From Planctomycetota bacterium (lineage in GTDB: Bacteria; Planctomycetota; SZUA-567; H5-PLA8): a DNA stretch of 64,000 nucleotides. The translations under genes were made by a program, and so were the position numbers. Location of the stretch: NCBI GenBank assembly GCA_038227875.1, contig JBBRPR010000025.1, positions 1 to 64,000 on the forward strand. The letters are read 5' to 3'. The notes beneath the pieces were generated by a model. The model saw nothing but the letters and a program-made list of their open reading frames with translations. It did no database searches and had not been told where the DNA came from. Positions 14,658 to 25,136 of this stretch are shown here, piece after piece. How positions within the stretch are numbered: position 1 is the first letter of the stretch; each line of letters starts with the position of its first letter.

Positions 14658-15878
14658 ATGCTGATCGCTGGGTTCTACTTCTTCTACTTCCTCGCCGCAG
14701 GGTTGCTCGTCCCATTTCTTCCGCCGTATCTAAAACAGACGCTCGGATTTGACGGCACGCAGGTCGCCACGATTTCGGCGCTCGCATACGCCGGCATGAT
14801 TTTCATTCCGCCGATCTGGGGCATGATCTCCGACCGCACGCGCCAGCCGGCCAAGTTGCTCAAAATCGCCAGCTTCATCACCGCCGTTTCGTTCGTGCCG
14901 ATGCTTTGGGCCAAATCGTATGCGGCCGTGATTGTCGTGATGGGTGTGTACGCGCTGGCCATCGCGCCGATCACGACGCTGGCCGATACCGTCTGCGTCT
15001 TCGAAGCGCGGCGCATCGGCACTGAGTACGGCCGCTTGCGAATGTGGGGCTCGTTCGGGTACGTCGTCAGCGGCACCCTGTTCAGCGCCTATGTCAACCG
15101 GACCGGACGCGACGCCGACGTGGTCCCGCTCTCACTGCTGATGATCGTCGGATACGCCGTGGTCTCCGCGCTGAATAATCCGCCGCTGGCGGAAGCCCGC
15201 CATTCGCCGCCCACGCTTCACGACGCGCGGCGCCTGTTGATGCGCCCGTCGTTCGCGCTGTTTCTGGGCGCGGAGTTCATCCACTGGACGGCGCTCTCCG
15301 CGTACTACTTGCTGTTCACAATTCACATGACCGACCTGCACGCCAAGCAGTACATGTGGATCACGGTCATGATTTCCGTCGCGACCGAGATGCTGCTGAT
15401 GTGGACCTTCGGCAGCATTCGCCGCCGCGTGCCGGTGATGGTGATCCTGGTGGTGGCGAGTGTCGTCAGCAGCGCGCGCTGGCTGCTGGTCTCGCAAATG
15501 ACCGACGGTGTTGCCGTGGCCGCGCTGCAGGGATTGCACTGCTTCTCGTTCGCCGCGTGTTACGTGGGCTCAATTACCTATATGGAACGCGCGGTGCCGA
15601 CGCCGCTGCTCGCCACGGGCCGAGCACTGTTTTCGTCGCTGGTGATGGGTCTCGGTGGCGTCGTCGGCACGATGCTCGCCGGCCGGCAGTACGACATCGG
15701 CCACGGCCAGCGCGCGTATTTCGTTTCTGGAATTCTGGAACTCGGCACGCCCGTGCTGCTCCTGGCGTCGTGGCTTGCGGCGAAGAAATGGGACGACGTC
15801 AAAGCGCAGGAAGCGGCAGCGCTCCCGCCGATGGCCGCCGATGCCGCAGTCGCATCAGTCGCTACCGACGTAGTCTGA
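14658..15878 (+). CDS. MFS transporter (MFS_1-like/HcaT-like)
   Basis: About 12 hydrophobic segments; WGMISDR and YGRLRMWGSFGY motifs. Confidence 0.88.
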   Translation: MLIAGFYFFYFLAAGLLVPFLPPYLKQTLGFDGTQVATISALAYAGMIFIPPIWGMISDRTRQPAKLLKIASFITAVSFVPMLWAKSYAAVIVVMGVYALAIAPITTLADTVCVFEARRIGTEYGRLRMWGSFGYVVSGTLFSAYVNRTGRDADVVPLSLLMIVGYAVVSALNNPPLAEARHSPPTLHDARRLLMRPSFALFLGAEFIHWTALSAYYLLFTIHMTDLHAKQYMWITVMISVATEMLLMWTFGSIRRRVPVMVILVVASVVSSARWLLVSQMTDGVAVAALQGLHCFSFAACYVGSITYMERAVPTPLLATGRALFSSLVMGLGGVVGTMLAGRQYDIGHGQRAYFVSGILELGTPVLLLASWLAAKKWDDVKAQEAAALPPMAADAAVASVATDVV

Positions 15879-15917
15879 GCGACTCATTCATCATTCATAG
15901 TTCATCGTTACGAGTAA

Positions 15918-16006
15918 CGGAAGGTGTGGGGTTCGAACCCACTTGCCCCGAATGAGGGCTGGAGATTAGCAATCTCCCCCGGCGCGCCATTCTCCGGCGA
16001 CCTTCC
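15918..16006 (-). tRNA. tRNA-Ser(GCT)
   Basis: Anticodon arm GGAGA-TT GCT AA-TCTCC, long variable arm, GGTTCGAACCC, G73. Confidence 0.9.
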
Positions 16007-16022
16007 AGATTTTATCCTGCTG

Positions 16023-16050
16023 AGGACTCGGGCCACGTGGCCCGAGTCCT
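16023..16050. repeat. Perfect 28-bp palindrome in a tRNA spacer
   Basis: aggactcgggccac|gtggcccgagtcct. Confidence 0.85.
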
Positions 16051-16068
16051 ATTTCACAATATATTTTA

Positions 16069-16156
16069 CGGAGGACAGAGGACTTGAACCCCACTCCCTC
16101 TAGGGGAGCATACCGTTTTCGAGACGGTCTCGGCGCGCCTGTCCGATTTATCCTCC
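16069..16156 (-). tRNA. tRNA-Ser(CGA)
   Basis: ACCGT-CT CGA AA-ACGGT, long variable arm, GGTTCAAGTCC, G73. Confidence 0.9.
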
Positions 16157-16231
16157 AGAAATACGTCCAGTGTTCGAGGCGGCGCTGCATTCTGGATCTG
16201 CAGCGCCGCAGCTTCACGTTTCTGTTGCGAC

Positions 16232-16822
16232 CTACTCCTTCAATTCCGCATTCCAGTACGCGTCGGAGACAAACTTCTCCCAACTTGCGCGGTACGGGAT
16301 GCGTGCGAGGACCAGCTTTGGCGTCCACGTCGGCTTGCACGGCGCCTTGAAGAGCGTTACGCCAGCCTCCGCGGGCGTGCGATTGGCCTTCTTGAAATTG
16401 CACTTCACGCACGCCACCACGCAGTTGTTCCACGTCGACGTACCGCCGCGCGAACGCGGTTGAACGTGATCGATGGTCAGTTCCTGTGTGCCAGGCTTCA
16501 CGCCGCAGTACTGGCACATGTAGCGGTCGCGGCGGTAGAGATTGCTGCGCGAAAACGCCACGCCGCGGACGGGAACTTCGCCGTACTTCGCCAGCACGAT
16601 CACCTCCGGCACGGGAATTTCCAGCGTCGCTGTGCGCACGCAGCGCTCACCTTCAGCGACGCGCAGCTGCGACCAGGAATCAAAATCGTGGAGCGAGTAA
16701 TCGTCGGACTTGATTACGCGCGCCGAGCCGTCGTAGACCTTGGTGAGCGCGTTGAGCACGGTGGTGATATCCACCGGAACCCAATTGCGATTCAATACCA
16801 GAGTCGCATCTTCAAGAACCAC
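16232..16822 (-). CDS. HNH endonuclease (McrA/HNH_5-like) inside the tRNA array
   Basis: RRDRYMCQYCG...TIDHVQPRSRGG...WNNCVVACVKCNFKK; AGGAGG SD before the GTG start. Confidence 0.92.
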   Translation of the reverse strand: MVLEDATLVLNRNWVPVDITTVLNALTKVYDGSARVIKSDDYSLHDFDSWSQLRVAEGERCVRTATLEIPVPEVIVLAKYGEVPVRGVAFSRSNLYRRDRYMCQYCGVKPGTQELTIDHVQPRSRGGTSTWNNCVVACVKCNFKKANRTPAEAGVTLFKAPCKPTWTPKLVLARIPYRASWEKFVSDAYWNAELKE

Positions 16823-16941
16823 AATCCCCTCCTGAAATGTCGAAGTGCGAATGTCGATTGTCCAATCGCAAGCGCGACAATTCTCGTCCCTGGTTTACTG
16901 ACTTTACTTCACTCCCTTACCACACGTTTCGTACTTCAATT

Positions 16942-17015
16942 TGGCAGAGCGTTAGGGAGTTCAACCCCACCGCAAGGTTTTGGAGGCCTCGCAGGTCCGC
17001 CGACCGTCACGCTCT
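16942..17015 (-). tRNA. tRNA-Trp(CCA), atypical
   Basis: GAGGC-CT CCA AA-ACCTT; T-loop TTGAACT; encoded CCA. Confidence 0.8.
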
Positions 17016-17102
17016 AGCGAATGTTGAAGGATGAATGTCGAATCTCGAATTCACCCAACTCACTTCTTACTCAGTCCTCGGCCCTCAGTCCTTTCGTACA
17101 GA

Positions 17103-17183
17103 TGGAGGCGTGAGGAATCGAACCTCATCAGCCCTGACGGGCGCTCGATTTACAGTCGAGCTCGGCTCCCAGGCCACGTCTCC
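17103..17183 (-). tRNA. tRNA-Tyr(GTA)
   Basis: CTCGA-CT GTA AA-TCGAG, long variable arm, GGTTCGATTCC. Confidence 0.88.
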
Positions 17184-17203
17184 AAACTTTTCGACGTTCC
17201 AAG

Positions 17204-17275
17204 TCCGCCCGCTGGGAATCGCACCCAGACCTCGACTTCCGCAAAATCGCGTGCGGTCTGTTACACTACGGGCGA
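17204..17275 (-). tRNA. tRNA-Arg(GCG), rare anticodon
   Basis: CGATT-TT GCG GA-AGTCG; T-loop TGCGATT; acceptor TCGCCCG/CGGGCGG. Confidence 0.78.
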
Positions 17276-17309
17276 AAAACTTGCGGTCCTTTCCTTCTCG
17301 ATTGTTAAG

Positions 17310-17380
17310 TTCGCCCGCCGGGAATTGCACCCAGTCTTCGATCTCGCAAGATTCGCGTGCTATAGTTACACTACGGGCGA
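17310..17380 (-). tRNA. tRNA-like paralog of tRNA-Arg(GCG) with an ambiguous anticodon (TGC by position); possibly pseudo-tRNA
   Basis: Body nearly identical to the neighbouring Arg(GCG) gene; arm CGAAT-CTTGCGA-GATCG; no G3:U70. Confidence 0.6.
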
Positions 17381-17409
17381 AGCTCTCAGTCCTCAGTCCT
17401 GTCCATTAT

Positions 17410-17484
17410 TGGCGCTCTCGCGAGGACTTGAACCTCGATCAACCGGTTAGAAGCCGGACGCTCTATCCATTGAGCTACGTGAGC
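17410..17484 (-). tRNA. tRNA-Arg(TCT)
   Basis: TCCGG-CT TCT AA-CCGGT; D-loop AATGGATA; encoded CCA. Confidence 0.9.
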
Positions 17485-17519
17485 GCAATTCGATACTCAG
17501 TCCTCAGTCCTTCCGTTCT

Positions 17520-17594
17520 TGGCGCTCCCGCGAGGACTCAAACCCCGATTGGCCGGTTCGAAGCCGGCTGTCCTATTCATTGAACGACAGGAGC
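17520..17594 (-). tRNA. tRNA-Arg(TCG), uncommon anticodon
   Basis: GCCGG-CT TCG AA-CCGGC; encoded CCA. Confidence 0.85.
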
Positions 17595-17618
17595 AAAATT
17601 CCGTATTCCTTTCACACA

Positions 17619-17693
17619 TGCCGCGAGTGGGATTCGAACCCACATAAACCTGGGTCTGAAACAGGCGCCTATGCCATGTTCGGCTACCGCGGC
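17619..17693 (-). tRNA. tRNA-Leu(CAG) with short variable region
   Basis: CCTGT-TT CAG AC-CCAGG; variable region only TTTAT; GGTTCGAATCCC; A73. Confidence 0.82.
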
Positions 17694-17723
17694 GTAACTT
17701 CAGCATCTCCTTCTTCTTCACGA

Positions 17724-17806
17724 TCAGGGCGGGGAGAGTCGAACTCCCATGGGCTTAAACCCGGCGGTATCTCGAACCGCTGCGTATGCCTTTCCGCCAC
17801 GCCCCG
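17724..17806 (-). tRNA. tRNA-Leu(GAG)
   Basis: GCGGT-TC GAG AT-ACCGC (C33), long variable arm, A73. Confidence 0.85.
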
Positions 17807-17831
17807 TGATTTGCACTTCTTGCTTCCTCAC

Positions 17832-17913
17832 TGCTCCCGAGAGGACTCGCACCTCTACGGCCCGACGGCCAGCCAATTTTAAGTCGGCCGCGTCTGCATT
17901 CCGCCACGGAAGC
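17832..17913 (-). tRNA. tRNA-Leu(TAA)
   Basis: GCCGA-CT TAA AA-TTGGC, long variable arm, T-loop TGCGAGT. Confidence 0.87.
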
Positions 17914-17939
17914 TTCTTCCCCTCTTTCCATCACCAATT

Positions 17940-18015
17940 TGGTGGAGACAGTGGGAGTTGCACCCACCTCACCGAGTATGCAAAACTCAGTCGCCCCTAC
18001 GGTACATGTGCCCCC
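17940..18015 (-). tRNA. tRNA-Ala(TGC)
   Basis: TGAGT-TT TGC AT-ACTCG; G3:U70 in the acceptor stem; ACCA end. Confidence 0.82.
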
Positions 18016-18049
18016 AACTCAGTCCTCAGCACTCAGTCCTTTCTGTTAA

Positions 18050-18120
18050 TAGCCACTGAGGGAATCGAACCCCCACCTTCAGTATGTAAAGCTGACATCC
18101 TCCCGTTAGACGAAGCGGCC
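18050..18120 (-). tRNA. tRNA-Val(TAC)
   Basis: TCAGC-TT TAC AT-ACTGA; GGTTCGATTCC; A73. Confidence 0.85.
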
Positions 18121-18131
18121 AGGTACGGCGC

Positions 18132-18263
18132 AGGACTGAGGGCCGAGGACTGCGGACTGAGTTAACTGCGAGCGCGCTTCGCTCTTTCTCAATCACGTTC
18201 CAAATTCAAGATTTCAATGCGCGCCAGCGCGCCGCAGTTACTCAGTCCTCGGCCCTCAGTCCT
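18132..18263. repeat. Long inverted repeat built from heptamer (GACTGAG/CTCAGTC) units
   Basis: aggactgagggccgaggactg...agttaactgcgagcgcgct pairs with agcgcgccgcagttactcagtcctcggccctcagtcct. Confidence 0.8.
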
Positions 18264-18273
18264 TTCTGTAAAG

Positions 18274-18346
18274 TTGCGGGCAACGGAATCGAACCGTCAT
18301 TGCAGGCTTATGAGACCCGCCAGGCGCCCACGCCTAGCCACCCGCC
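18274..18346 (-). tRNA. tRNA-Met(CAT), initiator-like 1:72 mismatch
   Basis: CGGGT-CT CAT AA-GCCTG; G1/A72 mismatch; A73. Confidence 0.8.
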
Positions 18347-18393
18347 ATTCCTCGTTCATCACTAATCACACATCACTTCACTTCACTTCACCA

Positions 18394-18466
18394 TGGGGCC
18401 CCCGGGTTTCGAGCCCGGTTCTTCCGTGCTTCAAACGGACGCAATGACCACACCTGCTCAAGCCCC
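18394..18466 (-). tRNA. tRNA-Phe(GAA)
   Basis: TCCGT-TT GAA GC-ACGGA; T-loop CTCGAAA. Confidence 0.83.
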
Positions 18467-18485
18467 GATCCTTGCTCATCATTTC

Positions 18486-18561
18486 TGGCGCTTCCGGCCG
18501 GAGTCGCACCGGCTAATGCCACCTGGACAGGGGGGCAGCTCCACTCTTTGCCATCGGAAGC
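18486..18561 (-). tRNA. tRNA-Asp(GTC), atypical
   Basis: CCCCC-CT GTC CA-GGTGG (C37); G73 followed by CCA; T-loop TGCGACT. Confidence 0.78.
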
Positions 18562-18599
18562 GACTAAAAATTCCGTACTCGACGTTCATCCTTTCCGAG

Positions 18600-18670
18600 A
18601 GGTCACGGCGGGAATCGCACCCACATCGTTCGCTTTGCAGGCGAATGCCTAGCTTTTCGGCCACGTGACC
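18600..18670 (-). tRNA. tRNA-Cys(GCA)
   Basis: TTCGC-CT GCA AA-GCGAA; U73. Confidence 0.88.
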
Positions 18671-18707
18671 AGCCTGTCTTCGTTCTCTTCCGTGATCGGG
18701 GCGCTGG

Positions 18708-18802
18708 CAGCCCGTTGATGAAAGTCTGTTCCGCCAAATTCGTCCGTGAAGCGCCTGGCCTTAAAACGTTCGCGGCGTGGCAGAAGAATTTTCAACGGGC
18801 TG
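18708..18802. mobile_element. MITE-like element, copy 1 (~95 bp)
   Basis: TIR cagcccgttga...tcaacgggctg; interior matches the reverse complement of the copy at 20901-20998. Confidence 0.7.
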
Positions 18803-18824
18803 CGGCGCGCCCCGATCACTCCGC

Positions 18825-19688
18825 TCACTTGCCTTCAAACGCAGCGGTCTTGAAGTGCTCCTTAAAGAGGTCCGCGGCGCGTCGACCGACGGCGCGCATC
18901 GCTTCCTTGCTTTCCACGATCTCGCCCTTCGCTTCGCGGCGGACGTCTTCGATCATCGCCTCAACGACCGTGCGCGTGTCTTCCATGCCCAAGCCGGCCG
19001 GCAACTTGTCGAGCACATGCTGGAGGCGCATCGGCGTCACCCACTCGTCGGCGATCGTCTTGGCGTCCTCGAGCACCTTCAACTTCGCCGGATCCTGAAC
19101 GACCTGCGGCGTGCGGCGTTCGCTGAAGTCGTCGCGCTTGTGCTTGGCGATCACGCAGCTGCCGTCGTTCGTGCGCAGCTCAATGATCGGGCGGAGCACG
19201 ACGCCTTCCCGCTTGTGTTCGCCCATCCCGTTGCGCTGCGCCTGGACTGACGGCGCGTCGCGCTGAGCATCGATCGCTGCGAGGTCGGTCGTGATGCGTT
19301 CGAAGTGAACGACCTCAAGACCCAGTTCTCGTGCGACTTCGGCCATGTCCGGAACCGAGAGCCAGCTGTCGCCGATCTGTACGTCGAAGACGATGAACTT
19401 CAGCGACGTACCGTAGGCGTCCGACATGTTCTGACACTTGCCACCGTAGGCTTCACCAAAGACCGTGACCTCCGGATGCCCGAGCTTCTCGAAACGCGCC
19501 TTCAGCTCCGCGGCATCGAAGAGCGCCATGAACTTCGGCAGGCTCTCGCCGCCCGGGAAGAAGTCGAGCGCCGCGTTCTTCCACGCTACGTTGGCCGACG
19601 TGCCGTGAAGCTTTTCCAGCGCGTAGCATTCCTTGAACAGGAGGATGTCCTGGCAGCGGTACAGATTTTCGATGTGCATGTAACCCAC
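18825..19688 (-). CDS. ATP-dependent RNA ligase, T4 Rnl2-like, inside the tRNA array
   Basis: Nucleotidyltransferase motifs I EKLHGTS, III FGEAYG, IIIa FIVFDV, IV EGVVL, V IAKHKRDDFSE, plus an Rnl2-like C-domain (WVTPMRLQHVLDKL, MIEDVRRE); GAGGA SD. Confidence 0.85.
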   Translation of the reverse strand: MGYMHIENLYRCQDILLFKECYALEKLHGTSANVAWKNAALDFFPGGESLPKFMALFDAAELKARFEKLGHPEVTVFGEAYGGKCQNMSDAYGTSLKFIVFDVQIGDSWLSVPDMAEVARELGLEVVHFERITTDLAAIDAQRDAPSVQAQRNGMGEHKREGVVLRPIIELRTNDGSCVIAKHKRDDFSERRTPQVVQDPAKLKVLEDAKTIADEWVTPMRLQHVLDKLPAGLGMEDTRTVVEAMIEDVRREAKGEIVESKEAMRAVGRRAADLFKEHFKTAAFEGK

Positions 19689-19718
19689 GGCTTCGTCCTC
19701 CTTTTCTCTTTCCTCAAT

Positions 19719-19794
19719 TGGGGTGACCTACGGGAGTCGAACCCGTTCTTCGAGCTTCACAAACTCGCGTGCGAACCGGCACACTCAGGTCTCC
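19719..19794 (-). tRNA. tRNA-His(GTG)
   Basis: CGAGT-TT GTG AA-GCTCG; G-1:C73; encoded CCA. Confidence 0.88.
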
Positions 19795-19819
19795 AACAAA
19801 TCCTCTCATACTTCTCCGA

Positions 19820-19891
19820 TCGGACGGGGAGGAGTCGAACCTCCACCTGCTGCGTATCAGACAGTTATGCAGACCCCTACACCACCGTCCG
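19820..19891 (-). tRNA. tRNA-Ile(GAT)
   Basis: ACTGT-CT GAT AC-GCAGC; GGTTCGACTCC; A73. Confidence 0.85.
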
Positions 19892-19911
19892 TTTTTCAAC
19901 ATCGTTCCAGA

Positions 19912-19985
19912 TCAGGACGGCCGGATTCGAACCGGCGGTCTCCTGCGCCCAAGGCAGGCGCTCTACCAAGCTAAGCCACGTCCTG
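19912..19985 (-). tRNA. tRNA-Pro(TGG)
   Basis: CCTGC-CT TGG GC-GCAGG; C1:G72; canonical D and T arms. Confidence 0.93.
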
Positions 19986-20020
19986 TTTGTACGTTTCCTT
20001 TCAATCATCGCGTTCGTGAG

Positions 20021-20095
20021 TCGGGATGGCCGGATTCGAACCGGCGACCTCCTGCTTCCGACGCAGGCGCTCTGGCCAAGCTGAGCTACATCCCG
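20021..20095 (-). tRNA. tRNA-Pro(CGG)
   Basis: CCTGC-GT CGG AA-GCAGG (G32, A37); C1:G72. Confidence 0.92.
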
Positions 20096-20111
20096 GTGCC
20101 GTTTTCTGCTC

Positions 20112-20183
20112 TCGGGCGCCCAGGAGTTGAACCCGGCCGGCGAGCTTATAAGACCCGCCAGTGCCACCGGCACATCACGCCCG
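20112..20183 (-). tRNA. tRNA-Ile(TAT), rare UAU anticodon
   Basis: CGGGT-CT TAT AA-GCTCG; GGTTCAACTCC; A73. Confidence 0.8.
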
Positions 20184-20234
20184 GCGCACGCTTACTTCGT
20201 TACTCTCCGCTTCCTGACTTCTCTGCTTTCCGCA

Positions 20235-20305
20235 TTGGCCCGCGAGGTGTCGAACCTCGATTCCCGGGTTCAAAGCCCAGTGTCCTACCGTTGGACGACA
20301 GGCCA
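20235..20305 (-). tRNA. tRNA-Gln(TTG)
   Basis: CTGGG-CT TTG AA-CCCGG; U1:A72. Confidence 0.9.
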
Positions 20306-20413
20306 GGGGAATGTCGAAACCTGAATGGCGAATGTCGAATTTTTTGAATCGCGCACTCTCAATTTGTTGCCTCGTTTCTGTTCTTCGACATTCGTCATTC
20401 GAAATTACCCCGA

Positions 20414-20485
20414 TTGCCGGGCAGGGATTCGAACCCCGCTTTCCTGATTCAGAGTCAAGCGTCCTACCTGATAGACGACCCGGCA
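20414..20485 (-). tRNA. tRNA-Gln(CTG)
   Basis: CTTGA-CT CTG AA-TCAGG; U1:A72. Confidence 0.9.
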
Positions 20486-20573
20486 TTCTTTAATTCAGAA
20501 CTATGAATGATGAGTGATGAATGAACTGCTGGCTGGTCGGTCAATTCATCGTTCATCGTTCATCATTTAGACG

Positions 20574-20646
20574 TGCGTCCCGTGGGGCTCGAACCCACAC
20601 CTCTCCGCTTAAAAGGCGGCTACTCTGCCACTCGAGTTACGGACGC
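20574..20646 (-). tRNA. tRNA-Lys(TTT)
   Basis: GCCGC-CT TTT AA-GCGGA; GGTTCGAGCCC. Confidence 0.9.
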
Positions 20647-20686
20647 AAATTCGATTCATCCTTGCTCATCCTACGCTCAGTGCCCA

Positions 20687-20759
20687 TGCCCCCGGGAGGA
20701 CTTGAACCTCCACCACACGGAGTAAGAATCCGGAATGCTGCCGCTAACACCTCGGAGGC
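20687..20759 (-). tRNA. tRNA-Lys(CTT)
   Basis: CCGGA-TT CTT AC-TCCGT; GGTTCAAGTCC. Confidence 0.85.
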
Positions 20760-20804
20760 GAACTGTCGCTTTATTTCTCCTGACTTCTCTCTACCTGACC
20801 TGAA

Positions 20805-20875
20805 TGGAGCGACCGGGATTCGCACCCGAAACGCGACCGTGCGAAAGTCGAATGATCCTGTTTCACCATCGCCCC
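20805..20875 (-). tRNA. tRNA-Ala(CGC)
   Basis: CGACT-TT CGC AC-GGTCG; G3:U70; T-loop TGCGAAT. Confidence 0.87.
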
Positions 20876-20900
20876 ATCTATTTCTCAACCTGACCCATAG

Positions 20901-20998
20901 CAGCCCGTTGATAGACCCTTGTACTGCGCCGCGAAACGCCTTTACTGCCAGGCGTTTCACGGAGAATCCTGGCGGAACAAGGCTTATTCAACGGGCTG
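20901..20998. mobile_element. MITE-like element, copy 2 (~98 bp) with a 4-bp ATAG flanking duplication
   Basis: atag-cagcccgttga...tcaacgggctg-atag; homologous to copy 1 in the opposite orientation. Confidence 0.75.
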
Positions 20999-20999
20999 A

Positions 21000-21071
21000 T
21001 AGCCCCACGGGGAGTCGAACCCCGGTTTCCGGATTGAAAGCCCAGCGTCCTGACCACTAGACGATGGGGCC
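21000..21071 (-). tRNA. tRNA-Glu(TTC)
   Basis: CTGGG-CT TTC AA-TCCGG; GGCCCCATCGTCTAG 5' end. Confidence 0.92.
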
Positions 21072-21130
21072 GAAGTACTGCCGTCTTGCCCTGCCATCCC
21101 GATCGATCGTTTCTTCCACTCTTCCGCACA

Positions 21131-21201
21131 TAGCCTCACGGAGATTCGAACTCCGGCTTCCGGTTCGAGAGACCAGCGTCCTGCCGCTAGACGATGAGGC
21201 C
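21131..21201 (-). tRNA. tRNA-Glu(CTC)
   Basis: CTGGT-CT CTC GA-ACCGG. Confidence 0.9.
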
Positions 21202-21265
21202 AAACTGTGCCGACTCCTGATTTCTATTCCTCTTCCCGCTTCTCGTTTCCTAATTCCCGAACCCA

Positions 21266-21336
21266 CTGCGAAGGAGGGAATCGAACCCCCATCTCCCGCT
21301 TAACAGGCAGGCGCGCTACCATTCCGCCACTTCGCA
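21266..21336 (-). tRNA. tRNA-Asn(GTT)
   Basis: CCTGC-CT GTT AA-GCGGG; U1:A72; G73. Confidence 0.9.
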
Positions 21337-21448
21337 ATAATTGGAGTTGAGGACTGAGTGTCGTGATTCGATAGTTGCATCACTGGCACTCGTTTGAATA
21401 TCTCAGTCCCCAGGTCTCCGATACTTTCTCCCGTTTCCGTTTTCCCGA

Positions 21449-21517
21449 AGCCGCAGTCAGGAATCGAACCTGCCGAATCTCTTTACGAAAGAGACTTGTG
21501 GCCCAGCACACAGCGGC
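21449..21517 (-). tRNA. tRNA-Thr(CGT), compact D-arm
   Basis: TCTCT-TT CGT AA-AGAGA; 69 nt; GCC 5' end. Confidence 0.78.
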
Positions 21518-21559
21518 GAGCCCGCCTGTTTCGAACGCCGTTCGTGTTTCGGGCTCGAA

Positions 21560-21629
21560 AGCCGCCGTCGGGAGTCGAACCCGCAAGCCCTCTCTACCGA
21601 AGAGGACTGTGAAGCCGTCACACAGCGGC
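21560..21629 (-). tRNA. tRNA-Thr(GGT), compact D-arm
   Basis: CCTCT-TC GGT AG-AGAGG (C33); 70 nt. Confidence 0.78.
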
Positions 21630-21659
21630 AACGATCCAAATGCTACGTCCAGGCTCCAG

Positions 21660-21727
21660 AGCCGCGGGCGGGAGTCGAACCCGCTGCGCCTCTTTACAGG
21701 AGAGGCCCGTGACCCTCACACCGCGGC
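21660..21727 (-). tRNA. tRNA-Thr(TGT), compact D-arm
   Basis: CCTCT-CC TGT AA-AGAGG (C33); 68 nt. Confidence 0.78.
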
Positions 21728-21768
21728 GCGGCGCATTTCACTTCTCTTCCCTTCGAATCCGACTTCTT

Positions 21769-21842
21769 TGGAGCGGTCGGCGGGAATCGAACCCGCATCT
21801 CCAGCTTGGCACGCTAGCGCTCGTCCACTGAGCTACGTCCGC
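21769..21842 (-). tRNA. tRNA-Gly(GCC), first gene of the array
   Basis: CTAGC-GT GCC AA-GCTGG; U73 followed by CCA. Confidence 0.92.
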
Positions 21843-22024
21843 AACAACACCACCGTTTCATTCCTCGCCAGATCAGTAAAGACAATGCGACACCTCACTC
21901 GGGAACAGCGGTCCCCGCGCCTGCACTGCGACTGCGAATACGTATGGACGGACAGACTTTCTAAGCGCCGCCAGCGGGTCGGTTGCCGGCGGTTACTGGA
22001 ATTCGCTTAGTTTGGATTCGGGCT

Positions 22025-22062
22025 AAAAAAAAACCTTCCGGGGTTTCTGGCCCCGGAAGGTT
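22025..22062 (-). terminator. Intrinsic terminator (attenuator) upstream of the tRNA array
   Basis: Minus strand AACCTTCCGGGG-CCAGAAA-CCCCGGAAGG followed by 9 T. Confidence 0.9.
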
Positions 22063-22097
22063 GGACTCTTTTTAAGAAGTCCTTCTCTTCTAGGGCC
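22049..22097 (-). promoter_or_regulatory. Putative antiterminator overlapping the leader-ORF stop codon
   Basis: GGCCCUAGAAG (22097-22087) pairs 10/11, including one G-U, with CUUCCGGGGCC (22059-22049), the terminator 5' arm; encloses hairpin GGACUUCUU/AAGAGUCC. Confidence 0.7.
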
Positions 22098-22266
22098 TTA
22101 GCTTTCTCGTATCGTTTTCCACCACCGCCGCGACTGCCGGATTCTGATAGGTCGATGTACCGATACGTTCCAAACTAAACAGCATGGCGGCTCGTCCGAG
22201 TTGGGGTTGTTTCCCCATTCGTAGAGACCATAGATGCGCAGGTATCGGTGACAGACAGCAAACCAT
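22090..22266 (-). CDS. Putative 58-aa pan-codon leader peptide MVCCLSPIPAHLWSLRMGKQPQLGRAAMLFSLERIGTSTYQNPAVAAVVENDTRKLRP
   Basis: AAGGAG SD 12 nt upstream of ATG; all 20 amino acids and 44 distinct codons; TAG 27 nt before the terminator; below the 60-aa ORF cut-off. Confidence 0.75.
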   Translation of the reverse strand: MVCCLSPIPAHLWSLRMGKQPQLGRAAMLFSLERIGTSTYQNPAVAAVVENDTRKLRP

Positions 22267-22300
22267 TTGAATCTAAAGCTCCTTGTTAAGTCTTAATGTG

Positions 22301-22363
22301 AACTAACCCCGCAACTGATTCGATGTCAAGGCAGCCGCTAATGGATTTGTAAATTATTTTTTT
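22301..22363 (-). promoter_or_regulatory. Putative sigma70-type promoter of the leader/tRNA array
   Basis: Perfect TTGACA (22329-22324), 17-bp spacer, weak -10 TTAGTT, upstream A/T tract. Confidence 0.55.
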
Positions 22364-22380
22364 AGCAAACGGGACTCAGG

Positions 22381-22998
22381 CTACTTCTTGCTTTTCTTGC
22401 GCTCGTTGAAATCGGCTTCCGGATCGGGGAGATCGGAGTTTCGCGTGGGCCTGTTCTTCTCAGCGTTGTCGTCTTTTTCCTTCTCGGGACCGGTGGGTCC
22501 GCCGGAGGGATTGATGACGCCGGTGTAGTACGTGATCGGTTCCTGTTCAGCGTCGGGCTGGTAATCGCGGTAGAGCAGTATGGCGATCTGGTACTGGCCC
22601 TTCGGGTATTCGTGGATCGGCAGCGCGTCCTTTCGCAGATCGAAGCGGTCGATCGCATTGCGGCTGGCGCGGCAGCTCCAGTAGAGTTTGCTCTCGGCGG
22701 AAAGTTTCACCGGCGTGGCGGAATCTCCCGCCTCATGGATCCACTCGTGGCCGGCCAGGATCCGGTTCATGAACAGTTGCGTGCCGGGCTTGGCGGGATC
22801 GGGTTCGGAAAGGATGCGCTGGTAGAGCGCCATCACTTCCATCGACGGACTGACGACGGAGTCGTCGTTCACCAGGACTGGTTCGGGCGCGCGCAGCAGG
22901 AAGGCGTAGGCCAGACCAAAGCAGCAGGCGGCGAGCAGGCCGATCACGAAGATGACTTCGAGCGCTCCGAATTTTCGTGGTGTCGTACTCGTCGCCAT
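22381..22998 (-). CDS. Hypothetical membrane-anchored protein
   Basis: N-terminal TM segment; GC3-biased codon usage. Confidence 0.7.
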   Translation of the reverse strand: MATSTTPRKFGALEVIFVIGLLAACCFGLAYAFLLRAPEPVLVNDDSVVSPSMEVMALYQRILSEPDPAKPGTQLFMNRILAGHEWIHEAGDSATPVKLSAESKLYWSCRASRNAIDRFDLRKDALPIHEYPKGQYQIAILLYRDYQPDAEQEPITYYTGVINPSGGPTGPEKEKDDNAEKNRPTRNSDLPDPEADFNERKKSKK

Positions 22999-23060
22999 GA
23001 GAACCGCAATCCACTATCCGTTTGAACGTAGTAGTTCGCGGAAGGGAAGTTCGGACATGC

Positions 23061-23822
23061 TTACGGAATCGCAAAGCGCTGCTGCTTGGCGTCCCACGCT
23101 CCCTTGGTCGCGTTGACTTTCAGCCACGCGGCGGCCAGATCGGGGCTCGACCAGCGCACGTACAGGACCGGCGTTCCGAACAGCGCTTCCTTGTGTGTCG
23201 CGATCTTCCGCGCGGGATCGCCCTTTTCGGGGGGCGGCAGGTCGGCGGGAATCTCTTCGTACGTGGCTGCCGCGCCGACATTCTTGAGCGCCGTCAGATC
23301 GGAGATCGCGCGCTGCGCAACTCTGCGCACTTCGATGGGTTGAGCGGGATCGAGCGCGCTGCGCAGCAGGTCGTAGTCGGACGCTTCCAGAGCTCCACTT
23401 TCGGCCAGAAACAGACTGCCGTGCGCGGCGATGATCTTGGAGCTGACGTTACCTTCGGTCATCGCTTTTCGGAAGACGCGCAGCGCCATCGCGGGGTTCG
23501 ACCCGCAGTAGGTGTAGTAGCGCGAGACGTCAGCGTCGTTGTTGTGAAACTGAACCAGTCCGAACATCTCGTTCAGGCCGTCGTTGATGACGACGGGTTT
23601 GCCATCGTTGTCCTTCTGGCTGAAGAGCTTCGTGTCGGCGCCCTGCATTCCGGAGTAGACGGACGCTTCATTGATCCCGGGGCGGAGCACCGCGATGATA
23701 ACGCCCAGCACAATCAGAACGGCGCAGACCAGCTGAACGGGCTTGGGGATCACGGCATTCAAGGTGATCGGCGCAGGCTGAATCAACTGTGCCGGCGCGG
23801 GTTCCGAAACGTCTTTGGACAT
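23061..23822 (-). CDS. Hypothetical single-TM protein
   Basis: LVCAVLIVLGVIIAVL TM helix; coding-like codon usage. Confidence 0.7.
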   Translation of the reverse strand: MSKDVSEPAPAQLIQPAPITLNAVIPKPVQLVCAVLIVLGVIIAVLRPGINEASVYSGMQGADTKLFSQKDNDGKPVVINDGLNEMFGLVQFHNNDADVSRYYTYCGSNPAMALRVFRKAMTEGNVSSKIIAAHGSLFLAESGALEASDYDLLRSALDPAQPIEVRRVAQRAISDLTALKNVGAAATYEEIPADLPPPEKGDPARKIATHKEALFGTPVLYVRWSSPDLAAAWLKVNATKGAWDAKQQRFAIP

Positions 23823-23906
23823 GAATTGAATACTCCATACAAAAGACTTCCCGTCGGACGCGACGAGAAGTGGAAAACGGAAGGGCGGATTTTGTCAGAT
23901 GCGGGC

Positions 23907-25136
23907 TTAGAAGTCAAAGCCGCGGCTGGGCTTTTTCTTCTCGGCTCCCGCGCCGCCGGCACCTCCAGCTCCGGCACCGCCGGGTGCGCGCGTCATTGTA
24001 GAGAGCACGTTGCCACCCTTGGCTGGCGTGGCGGCCTGCTGGTGCTGCAGCACTTCGTCGGCCGAGGTGCCGCGCTTGATTCCGCGGAACATCAGCTGCA
24101 AATCTTCCGGTGAAGAACTGGACGCCATCGCCTGTTCTTCGGTGATCACGCCCTTGCCCCAGAGCGCATAGAGCGCCTGGTTGAAGGTCTGCATCTTGTG
24201 ATGCGCGCCTTCCATGATCGCTTTTTCCAGATCGCGCGTCGAACCTTCTTCGATCAGTTGTTTGATGTACGACGTGTTGAGCATAATCTCGATGGCCGCG
24301 ATGCGTCCCTGGCCGTCGGCGCGCTTCACCAGCCGCTGACTGATGACGCCGCGGAGCACCAGCGCCAGTTGCATGCGGACCTGGTTGGCTTCCGGGCCTT
24401 CGAACGTGTCGAGGATACGATCGAGCGACTGCTTGGCGTCGTTGGTGTGCAGGGTCGAGAAGACCAAATGTCCCGTTTCCGCCGCGGTGATCGCGAAATG
24501 GATCGTCTCGGCGTCTCGCATTTCACCCATCAGGATCACGTCCGGGTCCTGGCGCAGTGCGGCGCGGAGGGCGCGGTGCAGTTCGTGCGTATCCAGACCC
24601 AGTTCGCGCTGGTTGATCGTGCTGAGTTCGTCGGTGTAGACGAATTCGATCGGGTCTTCGATGGTAACGACGTGATTCTGGTACTTCTGGTTGATGTACT
24701 GGATCATCGCGGCCAGCGTCGTCGATTTTCCGGAGCCGGTCGGTCCGGTGACGATGCATAGTCCGTTGGGATGGTCGCAGAGTTCCTTCAACGTGTCAGG
24801 CAGGCCCATCTTTTCGATCGTGGGCACTTCCAGCGGCACGAGTCGCATCACCGATCCGATCAGGCCGCGCTGGATGAACGCATTGACGCGGAAGCGCGCG
24901 TAGCCGGGAATTTCATACGAGAAGTCGGCTTCCATTTCCTGCAGAAACACGCGCATGCGTTCGGCGCCCATCAAGCGGGTCATCGACGCCTTCATGTCTT
25001 CGGCGGAGATTTCAGGATAGCTGGTCTGCGGGATGAGATCGCCGGCGACGCGGAAAAGCGGCGGCCGTCCGGTTTTGATGTGCAAGTCGGAGCCTTGATT
25101 CTGGCCCAGTTCAATGAGTAGCTGATCCAAATCCAT
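23907..25136 (-). CDS. pilT: PilT/PilU-family type IV pilus ATPase
   Basis: GSDLHI, RFRVNAF, Walker A GPTGSGKST, TIEDPIE, LRQDPDVILMGEMRD, TGHLVFSTLH. Confidence 0.9.
   Translation of the reverse strand: MDLDQLLIELGQNQGSDLHIKTGRPPLFRVAGDLIPQTSYPEISAEDMKASMTRLMGAERMRVFLQEMEADFSYEIPGYARFRVNAFIQRGLIGSVMRLVPLEVPTIEKMGLPDTLKELCDHPNGLCIVTGPTGSGKSTTLAAMIQYINQKYQNHVVTIEDPIEFVYTDELSTINQRELGLDTHELHRALRAALRQDPDVILMGEMRDAETIHFAITAAETGHLVFSTLHTNDAKQSLDRILDTFEGPEANQVRMQLALVLRGVISQRLVKRADGQGRIAAIEIMLNTSYIKQLIEEGSTRDLEKAIMEGAHHKMQTFNQALYALWGKGVITEEQAMASSSSPEDLQLMFRGIKRGTSADEVLQHQQAATPAKGGNVLSTMTRAPGGAGAGGAGGAGAEKKKPSRGFDF

Follow-up and report, generated by a model that had tools for sequence, protein, structure and literature searches.

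What decides whether a long array of supernumerary tRNA genes is transcribed? The question is raised by a stretch of 64,000 nucleotides (nt) from a Planctomycetota bacterium (positions 1 to 64,000 of contig JBBRPR010000025.1, assembly GCA_038227875.1; this whole stretch is referred to as the window), in which an element on the minus strand at 22,025-22,363 precedes 30 tRNA genes (Table 1). This element is probably a leader-peptide transcription attenuator that depends on the ribosome and gates the tRNA array, with every amino acid sampled by its leader. As judged by sequence, the features that define attenuators of the trp, his, and thr type are present: a Shine-Dalgarno (SD) motif, start codon, and short open reading frame (ORF); an intrinsic terminator; a covarying antiterminator that uses one strand of this terminator; and a stop codon positioned in the antiterminator strand. 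The regulatory codons appear to match the target in a new form—all 20 amino acids before tRNA arrays and a Thr-rich content before the gene of aspartate-semialdehyde dehydrogenase (asd).

A preliminary description of this region had proposed a TTGACA promoter, an AAGGAG SD motif, and a 58-codon leader ORF, all of which are present in the minus-strand sequence. Its codon bookkeeping is exact as well: The ORF features 44 distinct codons and 20 amino acids, and 12 of the 17 absent sense codons are the NNY partners of codons that are present, the other five being TTA, GTA, CCA, GAG, and CGG. At least 44 distinct codons are expected with a probability of 0.007 for uniform codons and of 0.004 with the base composition of the ORF itself; together with the presence of all 20 amino acids, the probability under random models is ~0.001. 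Among the ATG-initiated ORFs in the six frames of this genome, 1 of 532 with 58 codons reaches at least 44 distinct codons—the leader itself—as do 7 of 9165 with 50-66 codons. All 20 amino acids are held by 77 of 5423 ORFs of 50-58 codons (1.4%). The ORF of the window alone is hence an outlier and not proof, and the comparative data bear the weight. Those expectations of the preliminary description that sequence comparison can address are all borne out.

A family of leaders with a common chassis

When 41 relatives were searched with the DNA of the whole leader, the matches were confined to the last ~50 nt, that is, the terminator, and they led to the recognition of a family. Its members share a layout—referred to as the chassis—consisting of a −35 box TTGACA, a gap of 17 nt, a GGTT(A/G)GTT-like −10 box, an SD motif, an ORF, a stop region, a small hairpin, and a terminator. 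The −35 box reads TTGAC(A/G) in paralogs and relatives. The stop region is nearly invariant with the sequence GCA-CCC-TAG-(G)AAG, encoding ...Ala-Pro-UAG, and the terminator follows the form CCTTCC-N-GGG ... CCC-N-GGAAGG with a subsequent T-run; the small hairpin occupies the same place with a different sequence in other copies. The ORFs of the copies first read comprise 41-58 codons with little amino-acid conservation. Homologous arrays, which the preliminary description had expected to carry such leaders, do carry them, with poorly conserved peptides in a conserved architecture, and most family loci have the element at a distance of 80-260 nt upstream of a tRNA array.

The family sample is drawn from metagenome-assembled genomes and metagenomes. 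With a covariance model of the 3′ part, 14 of 20 genomes of the order have hits at E ≤ 0.01. Three copies were accepted in the genome of the window itself (the window and contigs C66 and C16), along with copies in the relatives G001, G002, G003, G006, G008, G009, G011, G012, and G015 and two in G014, so that members occur in 10 of the 19 other genomes of the order; an eleventh (G004) was added by a second model. L028 and L025 are ordinary gene-end terminators and not members, and a weak match in G017 was used for no claim. A family pattern scan matched 3 of 17 genomes, and a scan of public genome contigs turned up two relatives, both already known. Applied to an even sample of 151 genomes of the phylum, the second model gave matches in 12 genomes (8 of 94 high-quality ones). 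True members are found in other Planctomycetota families (G126, G066, G004, G107, and G130), and the second-model matches in G053, G143, G069, G115, and G041 are plain gene-end terminators. Metagenomes scanned with the chassis pattern gave 69 loci, 33 of which were used for ORF statistics. The 36 left out consist of six duplicates or cut copies (L065, L080, L087, L088, L095, L096, and L099, including overlaps with the next group), five loci with unclear starts (L033, L044, L049, L057, and L058), and others taken for chance matches or for the ends of long ORFs. The same pattern has 0 matches in viral contigs.

Covariation and folding order of two alternative helices

The terminator, described beforehand as a strong U9 terminator before the first tRNA gene, features a 12-bp stem and T9 and is located ~180 nt upstream of tRNA-Gly. 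Over 44 copies, 97% of its cells are paired, with 32 double-change cells compared with 9.0 ± 2.3 in shuffled alignments (0/500). The preliminary description had the end of the ORF pair with the 5′ arm of this terminator; this pairing is confirmed and reaches further, into the terminator loop. In most copies, GCACCC-UAG-(G)AAG pairs with CUUCC-N-GGGUGC, which comprises the 5′ arm and the first loop bases, and the window carries GGCCC/GGGCC where most copies have GCACCC/GGGUGC.

Both helices covary over the 44 copies, as had been anticipated for stems of this type. The upper helix of the antiterminator, evaluated independently of register, is paired in 84.7% of cells (79.5 ± 1.1 shuffled, 0/500) and contains 17 double-change cells (6.6 ± 2.2 shuffled, 0/500); its covariation score amounts to 0.189 versus 0.115 (0/500), and slid controls are paired in 28-55%. 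Pair types at single positions include AU 20/GC 9/GU 4 and CG 25/UA 4/UG 3/GC 2. The pattern used on the metagenomes fixed the invariant letters and not the covarying ones. Cognate duplexes of stop strand and 5′ arm have a mean energy of −19.5 kcal/mol in 14 genome copies versus −16.4 ± 0.6 kcal/mol with permuted partners (0/20000), and the duplex of the window reaches −18.5 kcal/mol versus −8.1 ± 2.9 for shuffled strands.

When the RNA is truncated before the 3′ arm of the terminator, the minimum-free-energy fold is the antiterminator in 42 of 44 copies—with a mean of −24.6 kcal/mol and capped by the small hairpin. The corresponding truncated RNA of the window pairs 22097-22085 with 22060-22049 at −25.3 kcal/mol. 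This predicted order of folding is the folding-order logic of classical attenuators, and the small hairpin between the stop codon and the terminator may serve as a pause hairpin.

These helices bear on a different assignment, namely an independent small gene for a peptide or small RNA with its own promoter and terminator, followed by an array that is driven by a promoter of its own in the spacer. The complete promoter, the strong terminator, the distance of 180 nt to tRNA-Gly with a conserved hairpin motif in between, and the terminator form adopted by the full-length RNA would all suit such a gene, and attenuator RNAs can in addition act in trans, as rnTrpL does. Such a gene is nevertheless unlikely. 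Its peptide is poorly conserved, yet covariation ties the stop region to the terminator arm; in all cases, the element is found on the strand of its target and upstream of it, be the target an array, a single tRNA gene, or one of several gene classes; and the content of the leader tracks that target. No Rfam or T-box match is present in 21843-22400 (cmscan with E up to 1, run over 15000-24000). The motif of the family-type promoter occurs at two sites in the window, the leader and 38747-38718, and is absent from both the array and the spacer between the terminator and tRNA-Gly, where an independent promoter would have spoken against attenuation.

The spacer itself features a hairpin followed by (U)GUUGUC. 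Among 11 aligned loci, the hairpin sequence varies and a TGTTGTC-like motif is retained in most, and no conserved −10 box is found downstream of it in these spacers. For the spacer element at 21878-21935, roles in processing, in binding, or as a second point of control are conceivable. The terminator hairpin (22032-22062) is also listed on the plus strand, where an A-rich stretch lies upstream of it; hence, it could work in both directions.

Amino-acid and codon content of array leaders

After removal of near-identical copies (L046, L076, G012, L093, L091, L075, and L078), the leaders fall into 18 before arrays, 14 before other or unknown genes, and eight before single tRNA genes. All 20 amino acids are present in 12 of the 18 array leaders, which have 46-77 codons. 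The number of complete leaders expected in this set is 0.84 for uniform codons, 0.35 for the position-specific composition of the leaders themselves, and 0.96 for the pooled composition of array leaders, with Poisson-binomial P values of 2e-13, 4e-19, and 1e-12, respectively, if the leaders are independent. Complete leaders are found once among the 14 before other genes (Fisher P 0.0008 for arrays versus others) and not at all among the eight, shorter ones before single tRNA genes. One of the latter (L077) was counted one codon too long, which leaves the array counts unaffected.

The codon diversity of array leaders is elevated with a Stouffer Z of +4.8 versus uniform usage and +8.0 versus their own composition; the corresponding values of the siblings are −2.8 and +2.8. 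Individual members range from z −0.9 to +3.2 versus uniform usage. In addition, the synonymous codons of array leaders are over-dispersed given the peptides: 691 distinct codons occur, where pooled usage predicts 636.5 ± 8.8 (z 6.2) and uniform synonymous usage 672.7 ± 8.7 (z 2.1). A comparison of the last 41 codons eliminates the effect of start choice and gives a mean of 32.1 codons and 17.7 amino acids for arrays versus 28.4 and 16.0 for siblings (P 0.003 each). Among leaders from other families, G004 holds 20 amino acids in 53 codons, G126a 19 in 45, and G066 16-18 depending on the start. The composition of array leaders thus appears to be selected. The high codon and amino-acid coverage first seen in the window is conserved in array leaders specifically and no quirk of this one copy. 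The sensing of all codons, as originally put forward, stands in part: Amino-acid completeness and synonymous dispersion are strong, whereas the coverage of all decoding classes is weaker.

The same composition could be without any sensing role—reflecting ancestry, length, or lack of constraint—in an attenuator that responds to translation stress in general. Sibling leaders before an ABC exporter, a MATE pump, and methyltransferases presumably work without full coverage, 5 of the 18 array leaders have an ordinary codon diversity, and the codons of single-tRNA leaders do not match their tRNA, all of which would agree with such an attenuator. It is rather improbable, given the excess of complete array leaders over both the ~1 expected and the siblings. 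Length and lack of constraint are addressed by the equal-length and composition-matched tests, which hold, and by synonymous codons being over-dispersed given the peptide. As for ancestry, the array leaders have a median identity of 26% and a maximum of 53%, and neutral codon replacement keeps completeness in 8-20% of trials (8% when 70% of codons are replaced); hence, common descent cannot account for 12 of 18. Furthermore, the Thr-rich leaders before asd show ORF content in use as a sensor.

Signs of translation and the stop region

Several properties of the leaders are consistent with a translated ORF. In 5 of 5 first copies, no stop interrupts the frame between the SD motif and the conserved TAG, whereas 13 stops fall within 508 codons of the other frames. 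Measured from the −35 box, the start codon is 62-63 nt away in 9 of 11 genome array leaders; the chosen starts of family members are preceded by an SD-like motif at 9-14 nt; and, in 9 of 10 array leaders, codons are more diverse in frame than on average in the other two frames.

The end of the ORF is marked by a second SD-like motif. A 4-mer of this kind is located within 16 nt before the stop codon in 37 of 44 copies compared with 61 of 672 background windows (9%), and it ends 10-11 nt before the stop codon in 28 of the 37—a spacing that would put the final sense codon in the P site. The stop codon is UAG in 13 of 14 aligned genome copies (G009 has UAG or a nearby UGA depending on the frame), and the last residue is proline in 12 of 14. 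A C-terminal proline before the stop codon is associated with slow release. Distant members end otherwise, with Val-Leu-UAG in G004 and UGA in G126b and G107.

From these constant features, the sensor could be sought in the termination step or in the nascent peptide, such that Ala-Pro-UAG and the SD-like motif report the activity of release factor 1 (RF1) or a small-molecule-dependent arrest of the TnaC kind. The prevalence of UAG and of the final proline, the fixed spacing of the SD-like motif, and a weak Y-x-N motif seen by eye 12-13 residues before the C-terminus of several leader peptides point in this direction. The idea is very unlikely to hold, since pairing with GGG...CUUCC also accounts for CCC-UAG-(G)AAG, and where the arm differs, it is matched by synonymous or compensating changes (CCU/CUU with ..CCUGAG in G015 and G009). 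The different ends of distant members speak against it as well, and it leaves the all-20 composition unexplained. Moreover, a ribosome held at the stop codon favors the terminator, so that low RF1 would silence the array, a response without regulatory sense.

After CCC-U, the +1 frame (CCU AGA ...) is open through the terminator in the window (22093-22020, minus strand) and in G011. A prfB-like +1 frameshift at this site was considered and dropped; the +1 frame closes early in G008, as judged by eye.

Sibling copies before other genes

The chassis is also found before protein genes and single tRNA genes. As assigned by Pfam, it is followed by an ABC exporter (ABC_membrane and ABC_tran) on contig C16 of the same genome, in G014b, and in L073; by asd in L039 and L061; by S-adenosylmethionine-dependent methyltransferases in L040 and L082; by a MatE (MATE) pump in L044; and by a fragment with an OB fold of the aminoacyl-tRNA synthetase (aaRS) type in L085. 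On contig C66 (L031), it precedes a GNAT gene and then a tRNA-Ile with the unusual anticodon AAT. Single tRNA genes headed by the chassis are those for Met, Asn, Ser, Lys, Ile, Pro, and Gln.

Among all leaders, those before asd rank first to third in Thr fraction, with 0.17-0.21 versus 0.063, and feature Thr runs (P ~0.01), the classical layout for a gene of the Thr pathway; ORF content hence serves as a sensor in the chassis family. The leader before the aaRS-type fragment is marginally rich in Asp/Asn (P 0.037, third highest). The occurrence of the same chassis before single tRNA genes and protein genes argues for a general attenuator family with ORF content tuned to the target, and siblings with Thr runs or ordinary content before other genes provide the family with built-in controls.

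The single-tRNA leaders L063, L074, L078, L098, L041, and L048 form a subfamily with a promoter of the TTGACA-17-TACACT type. Their peptides start with M-(K/R)-x-x-A-F-x-x-N-S-L-P, and a CCCUCCC...GAGGAG stretch could sequester the SD motif.

Proposed mechanism

Transcription would start at a constitutive-looking promoter, and a ribosome would load on the leader ORF. Upon arrival at the end of the ORF, the ribosome would sit on ...Pro-UAG and cover the 13-nt stop strand, probably being parked there by the GGAGG-type SD-like motif 10-11 nt upstream and by slow release at proline. By its expected footprint, the terminating ribosome would mask the antiterminator strand, which then could not pair with the 5′ arm; the 12-bp/U9 terminator would form, and the array would stay off. 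With a ribosome stalled more than ~5 codons upstream, or with no ribosome at all, the stop strand would zip with the 5′ arm and the loop bases around the small hairpin. This antiterminator would form before the 3′ arm emerges and allow read-through into tRNA-Gly, ~30 more tRNAs, the RNA ligase, and the HNH endonuclease. Because all 20 amino acids and dispersed synonymous codons are represented, the loss of almost any aminoacyl-tRNA or a general block would give the same output.

We lean, by a small measure, toward a wider view, in which Planctomycetota employ a modular chassis with a programmable ORF again and again, and the amino acids encoded by the ORF give each copy its meaning: Thr runs for asd, ordinary ORFs for efflux and methyltransferase genes, and the full set of 20 amino acids with dispersed synonymous codons for long tRNA arrays. 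With the array copies, a direct feedback from failing decoding to the transcription of tRNA genes would then be described for the first time—a backup tRNA pool and an RNA ligase being switched on when any tRNA is depleted or cut, be it by anticodon nucleases, starvation, or antibiotics.

A number of points weigh against attenuation by an amino-acid-complete leader. The full-length RNA favors the terminator, with an average of −35.6 kcal/mol compared with −25.3 kcal/mol when the 3′ arm is blocked; read-through hence depends on folding kinetics. An anti-antiterminator (strand 1) that pairs with the stop strand was not found upstream by eye, and the design, unlike trp, therefore predicts read-through without any translation—a behavior that would plausibly suit a stress switch. 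The spacing between SD motif and start codon is long (11-12 nt), start codons were picked by eye from an SD motif and ATG or GTG, and a promoter of another type could lie within the 180-nt spacer. As to content, one to three amino acids are missing from 6 of the 18 array leaders; the codon diversity of G002, G009, G014a, L034, and L051 is at or below uniform expectation; the array leaders are homologous, so that the P values for completeness overstate their independence; the set of other leaders includes two (L036 and L083) with downstream genes that are not known; and, by eye, single-tRNA leaders carry no enrichment of cognate codons. A weak hint in favor comes from RNA libraries: A 151-nt contig from a wetland library spans 21964-22114 with 3 differences, covering the stop codon, the terminator, and 59 nt beyond, and a 152-nt contig from a soil library covers the body of the ORF (22095-22249). 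Transcription across the terminator in close relatives is thereby weakly suggested; the contigs show no ends and may derive from DNA. Among sequencing runs, the whole stretch is contained only in the DNA run that is probably its source, and RNA runs contain small shares of it.

Relation to known systems

The attenuators of amino-acid operons (trpL, hisL, thrL, leuL, pheL, and the multivalent ilv) have in common with this element the promoter, the SD motif, the short ORF, the mutually exclusive antiterminator and terminator, and the placement of the stop codon that lets a terminating ribosome mask the antiterminator strand. The Thr runs of the asd siblings resemble thrL in particular. The element differs in its target, which is a tRNA array and not a set of biosynthetic genes; in offering one or two codons for each of 20 amino acids in place of runs of a single residue; and in having the stop codon inside the antiterminator strand, with no 1:2 anti-antiterminator found. 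It bears no sequence relation to the leader families of Rfam.

TnaC is said to carry a C-terminal proline before its stop codon and to act through Rho and free tryptophan. The final proline directly before the stop codon is shared with it, whereas the parked ribosome would here favor an intrinsic terminator, and distant members lack Pro-UAG. T-box riboswitches are likewise antitermination systems that respond to tRNA charging; they differ in binding one uncharged tRNA, in having no ORF, and in controlling aaRS and amino-acid genes, and the element has no T-box match.

Attenuators that sense stalled ribosomes form a further group. PA5471.1/armZ-mexXY of Pseudomonas reportedly belongs here as a ribosome-stall-sensing attenuator of resistance genes. 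In bmrB-bmrCD of Bacillus subtilis, according to the accessible part of the source, translation of the leader couples a general impairment of protein synthesis to read-through, and rare codons matter (PMC4191407); the same coupling is proposed here. The siblings before an ABC exporter, a MATE pump, and methyltransferases are reminiscent of bmrB and armZ. Those two answer ribosome-targeting drugs and control efflux or resistance, whereas the element at hand has a complete leader and precedes tRNAs and an RNA ligase.

As far as described in the accessible text, the tRNA array of Anabaena sp. PCC 7120 (trn operon)—a long, horizontally spread, supernumerary array of the L-array type—is normally silent, induced by translational stress, and co-regulated with rtcB (PMC8421152). 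Its control is attributed there to direct repeats of 9 nt that lie in tandem across the −10 box and the start site and to a putative repressor (PMC8421152), and that text contains none of the terms attenuat-, leader, terminator, and uORF. The physiology proposed here agrees with that of the Anabaena array, and the link to an RNA ligase is common to both systems, the ligase gene being located inside the array here. In contrast to Anabaena, the promoter region of the leader (22270-22400) contains 0 direct repeats of at least 8 nt.

How supernumerary tRNA arrays are silenced and induced is known for one cyanobacterium only, where control proceeds via a promoter element. The present sequence suggests a direct mechanism, in which the progress of a ribosome over an all-amino-acid leader decides on the transcription of a second tRNA set. 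If true, leader-peptide attenuation would reach beyond pathways that sense one amino acid and come to monitor decoding capacity in general, with tRNA genes joining protein genes as its targets; it would provide a compact natural reporter of translation stress and link tRNA arrays with an embedded RNA ligase to defense against tRNA damage. A literature search, with subscription-only papers and supplements outside its scope, found no leader-peptide attenuator before tRNA genes and no amino-acid-complete leader.

Features of the locus and the tRNA array

The coordinates of the element and of the unit downstream are compiled in Table 1. A generic promoter scan did not list the promoter of the leader, and a generic terminator scan gave a count for the region that is not above shuffles (11 versus 9.1 ± 3.5 expected).

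Table 1. Positions of the leader element and its downstream unit in the window.
Feature	Position	Strand	Description
Promoter	22301-22329	−	Predicted from sequence; −35 TTGACA 22329-22324, 17-nt spacer, −10-like TTAGTT 22306-22301
Shine-Dalgarno motif	22279-22284	−	AAGGAG; ATG (22266) 12 nt downstream
Leader ORF	22090-22266	−	58 sense codons and TAG (22092-22090); 44 distinct codons, 20 amino acids; C-terminus Arg-Pro-UAG
Antiterminator 5′ strand	22085-22097	−	GGCCCUAGAAGAG; 13 nt, includes the stop codon 22092-22090
Small hairpin	22063-22082	−	GGACUU...GAGUCC; between stop codon and terminator, caps the antiterminator in predicted folds
Intrinsic terminator	22023-22062	−	12-bp stem 22062-22032 (8 G-C), loop CCAGAAA, T9 22033-22025
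Spacer element	21878-21935	−	Hairpin, then (U)GUUGUC; ~45 nt before tRNA-Gly; from alignment of 11 spacers
Regulated unit	15917-21842	−	30 tRNA genes (ARAGORN); first is tRNA-Gly(GCC) at 21842
RNA ligase gene (PF09414)	19688-18825	−	Embedded in the tRNA array
HNH endonuclease gene	16822-16232	−	Embedded in the tRNA array

ARAGORN finds 81 tRNA genes in the genome, 30 in the array and 51 scattered elsewhere, which makes the array a supernumerary second set. With these 30 genes in 5.9 kb, it fits the definition of an L-array, given in the accessible part of the source as at least 20 tRNA genes at a density of at least 2 per kb (PMC4758250). Rfam adds two tRNA-like genes within the array, which are missed by ARAGORN at its default setting and called Ala at a lower threshold. 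The array also contains a tRNA-Ile with the anticodon TAT; together with the two tRNA-like genes, it is located at 20112-20183, 20805-20875, and 17310-17380 on the minus strand.

A GNAT acetyltransferase (Acetyltransf_3, starting with MKxxFLIGE..), of the type that follows its own leader copy on contig C66, recurs inside the arrays of relatives (L016, L019, L022, and L023). Elsewhere in the genome, on contigs C67, C13, and C47, ARAGORN lists one tRNA with the anticodon CTA, labelled Pyl, and two tRNA-SeC.

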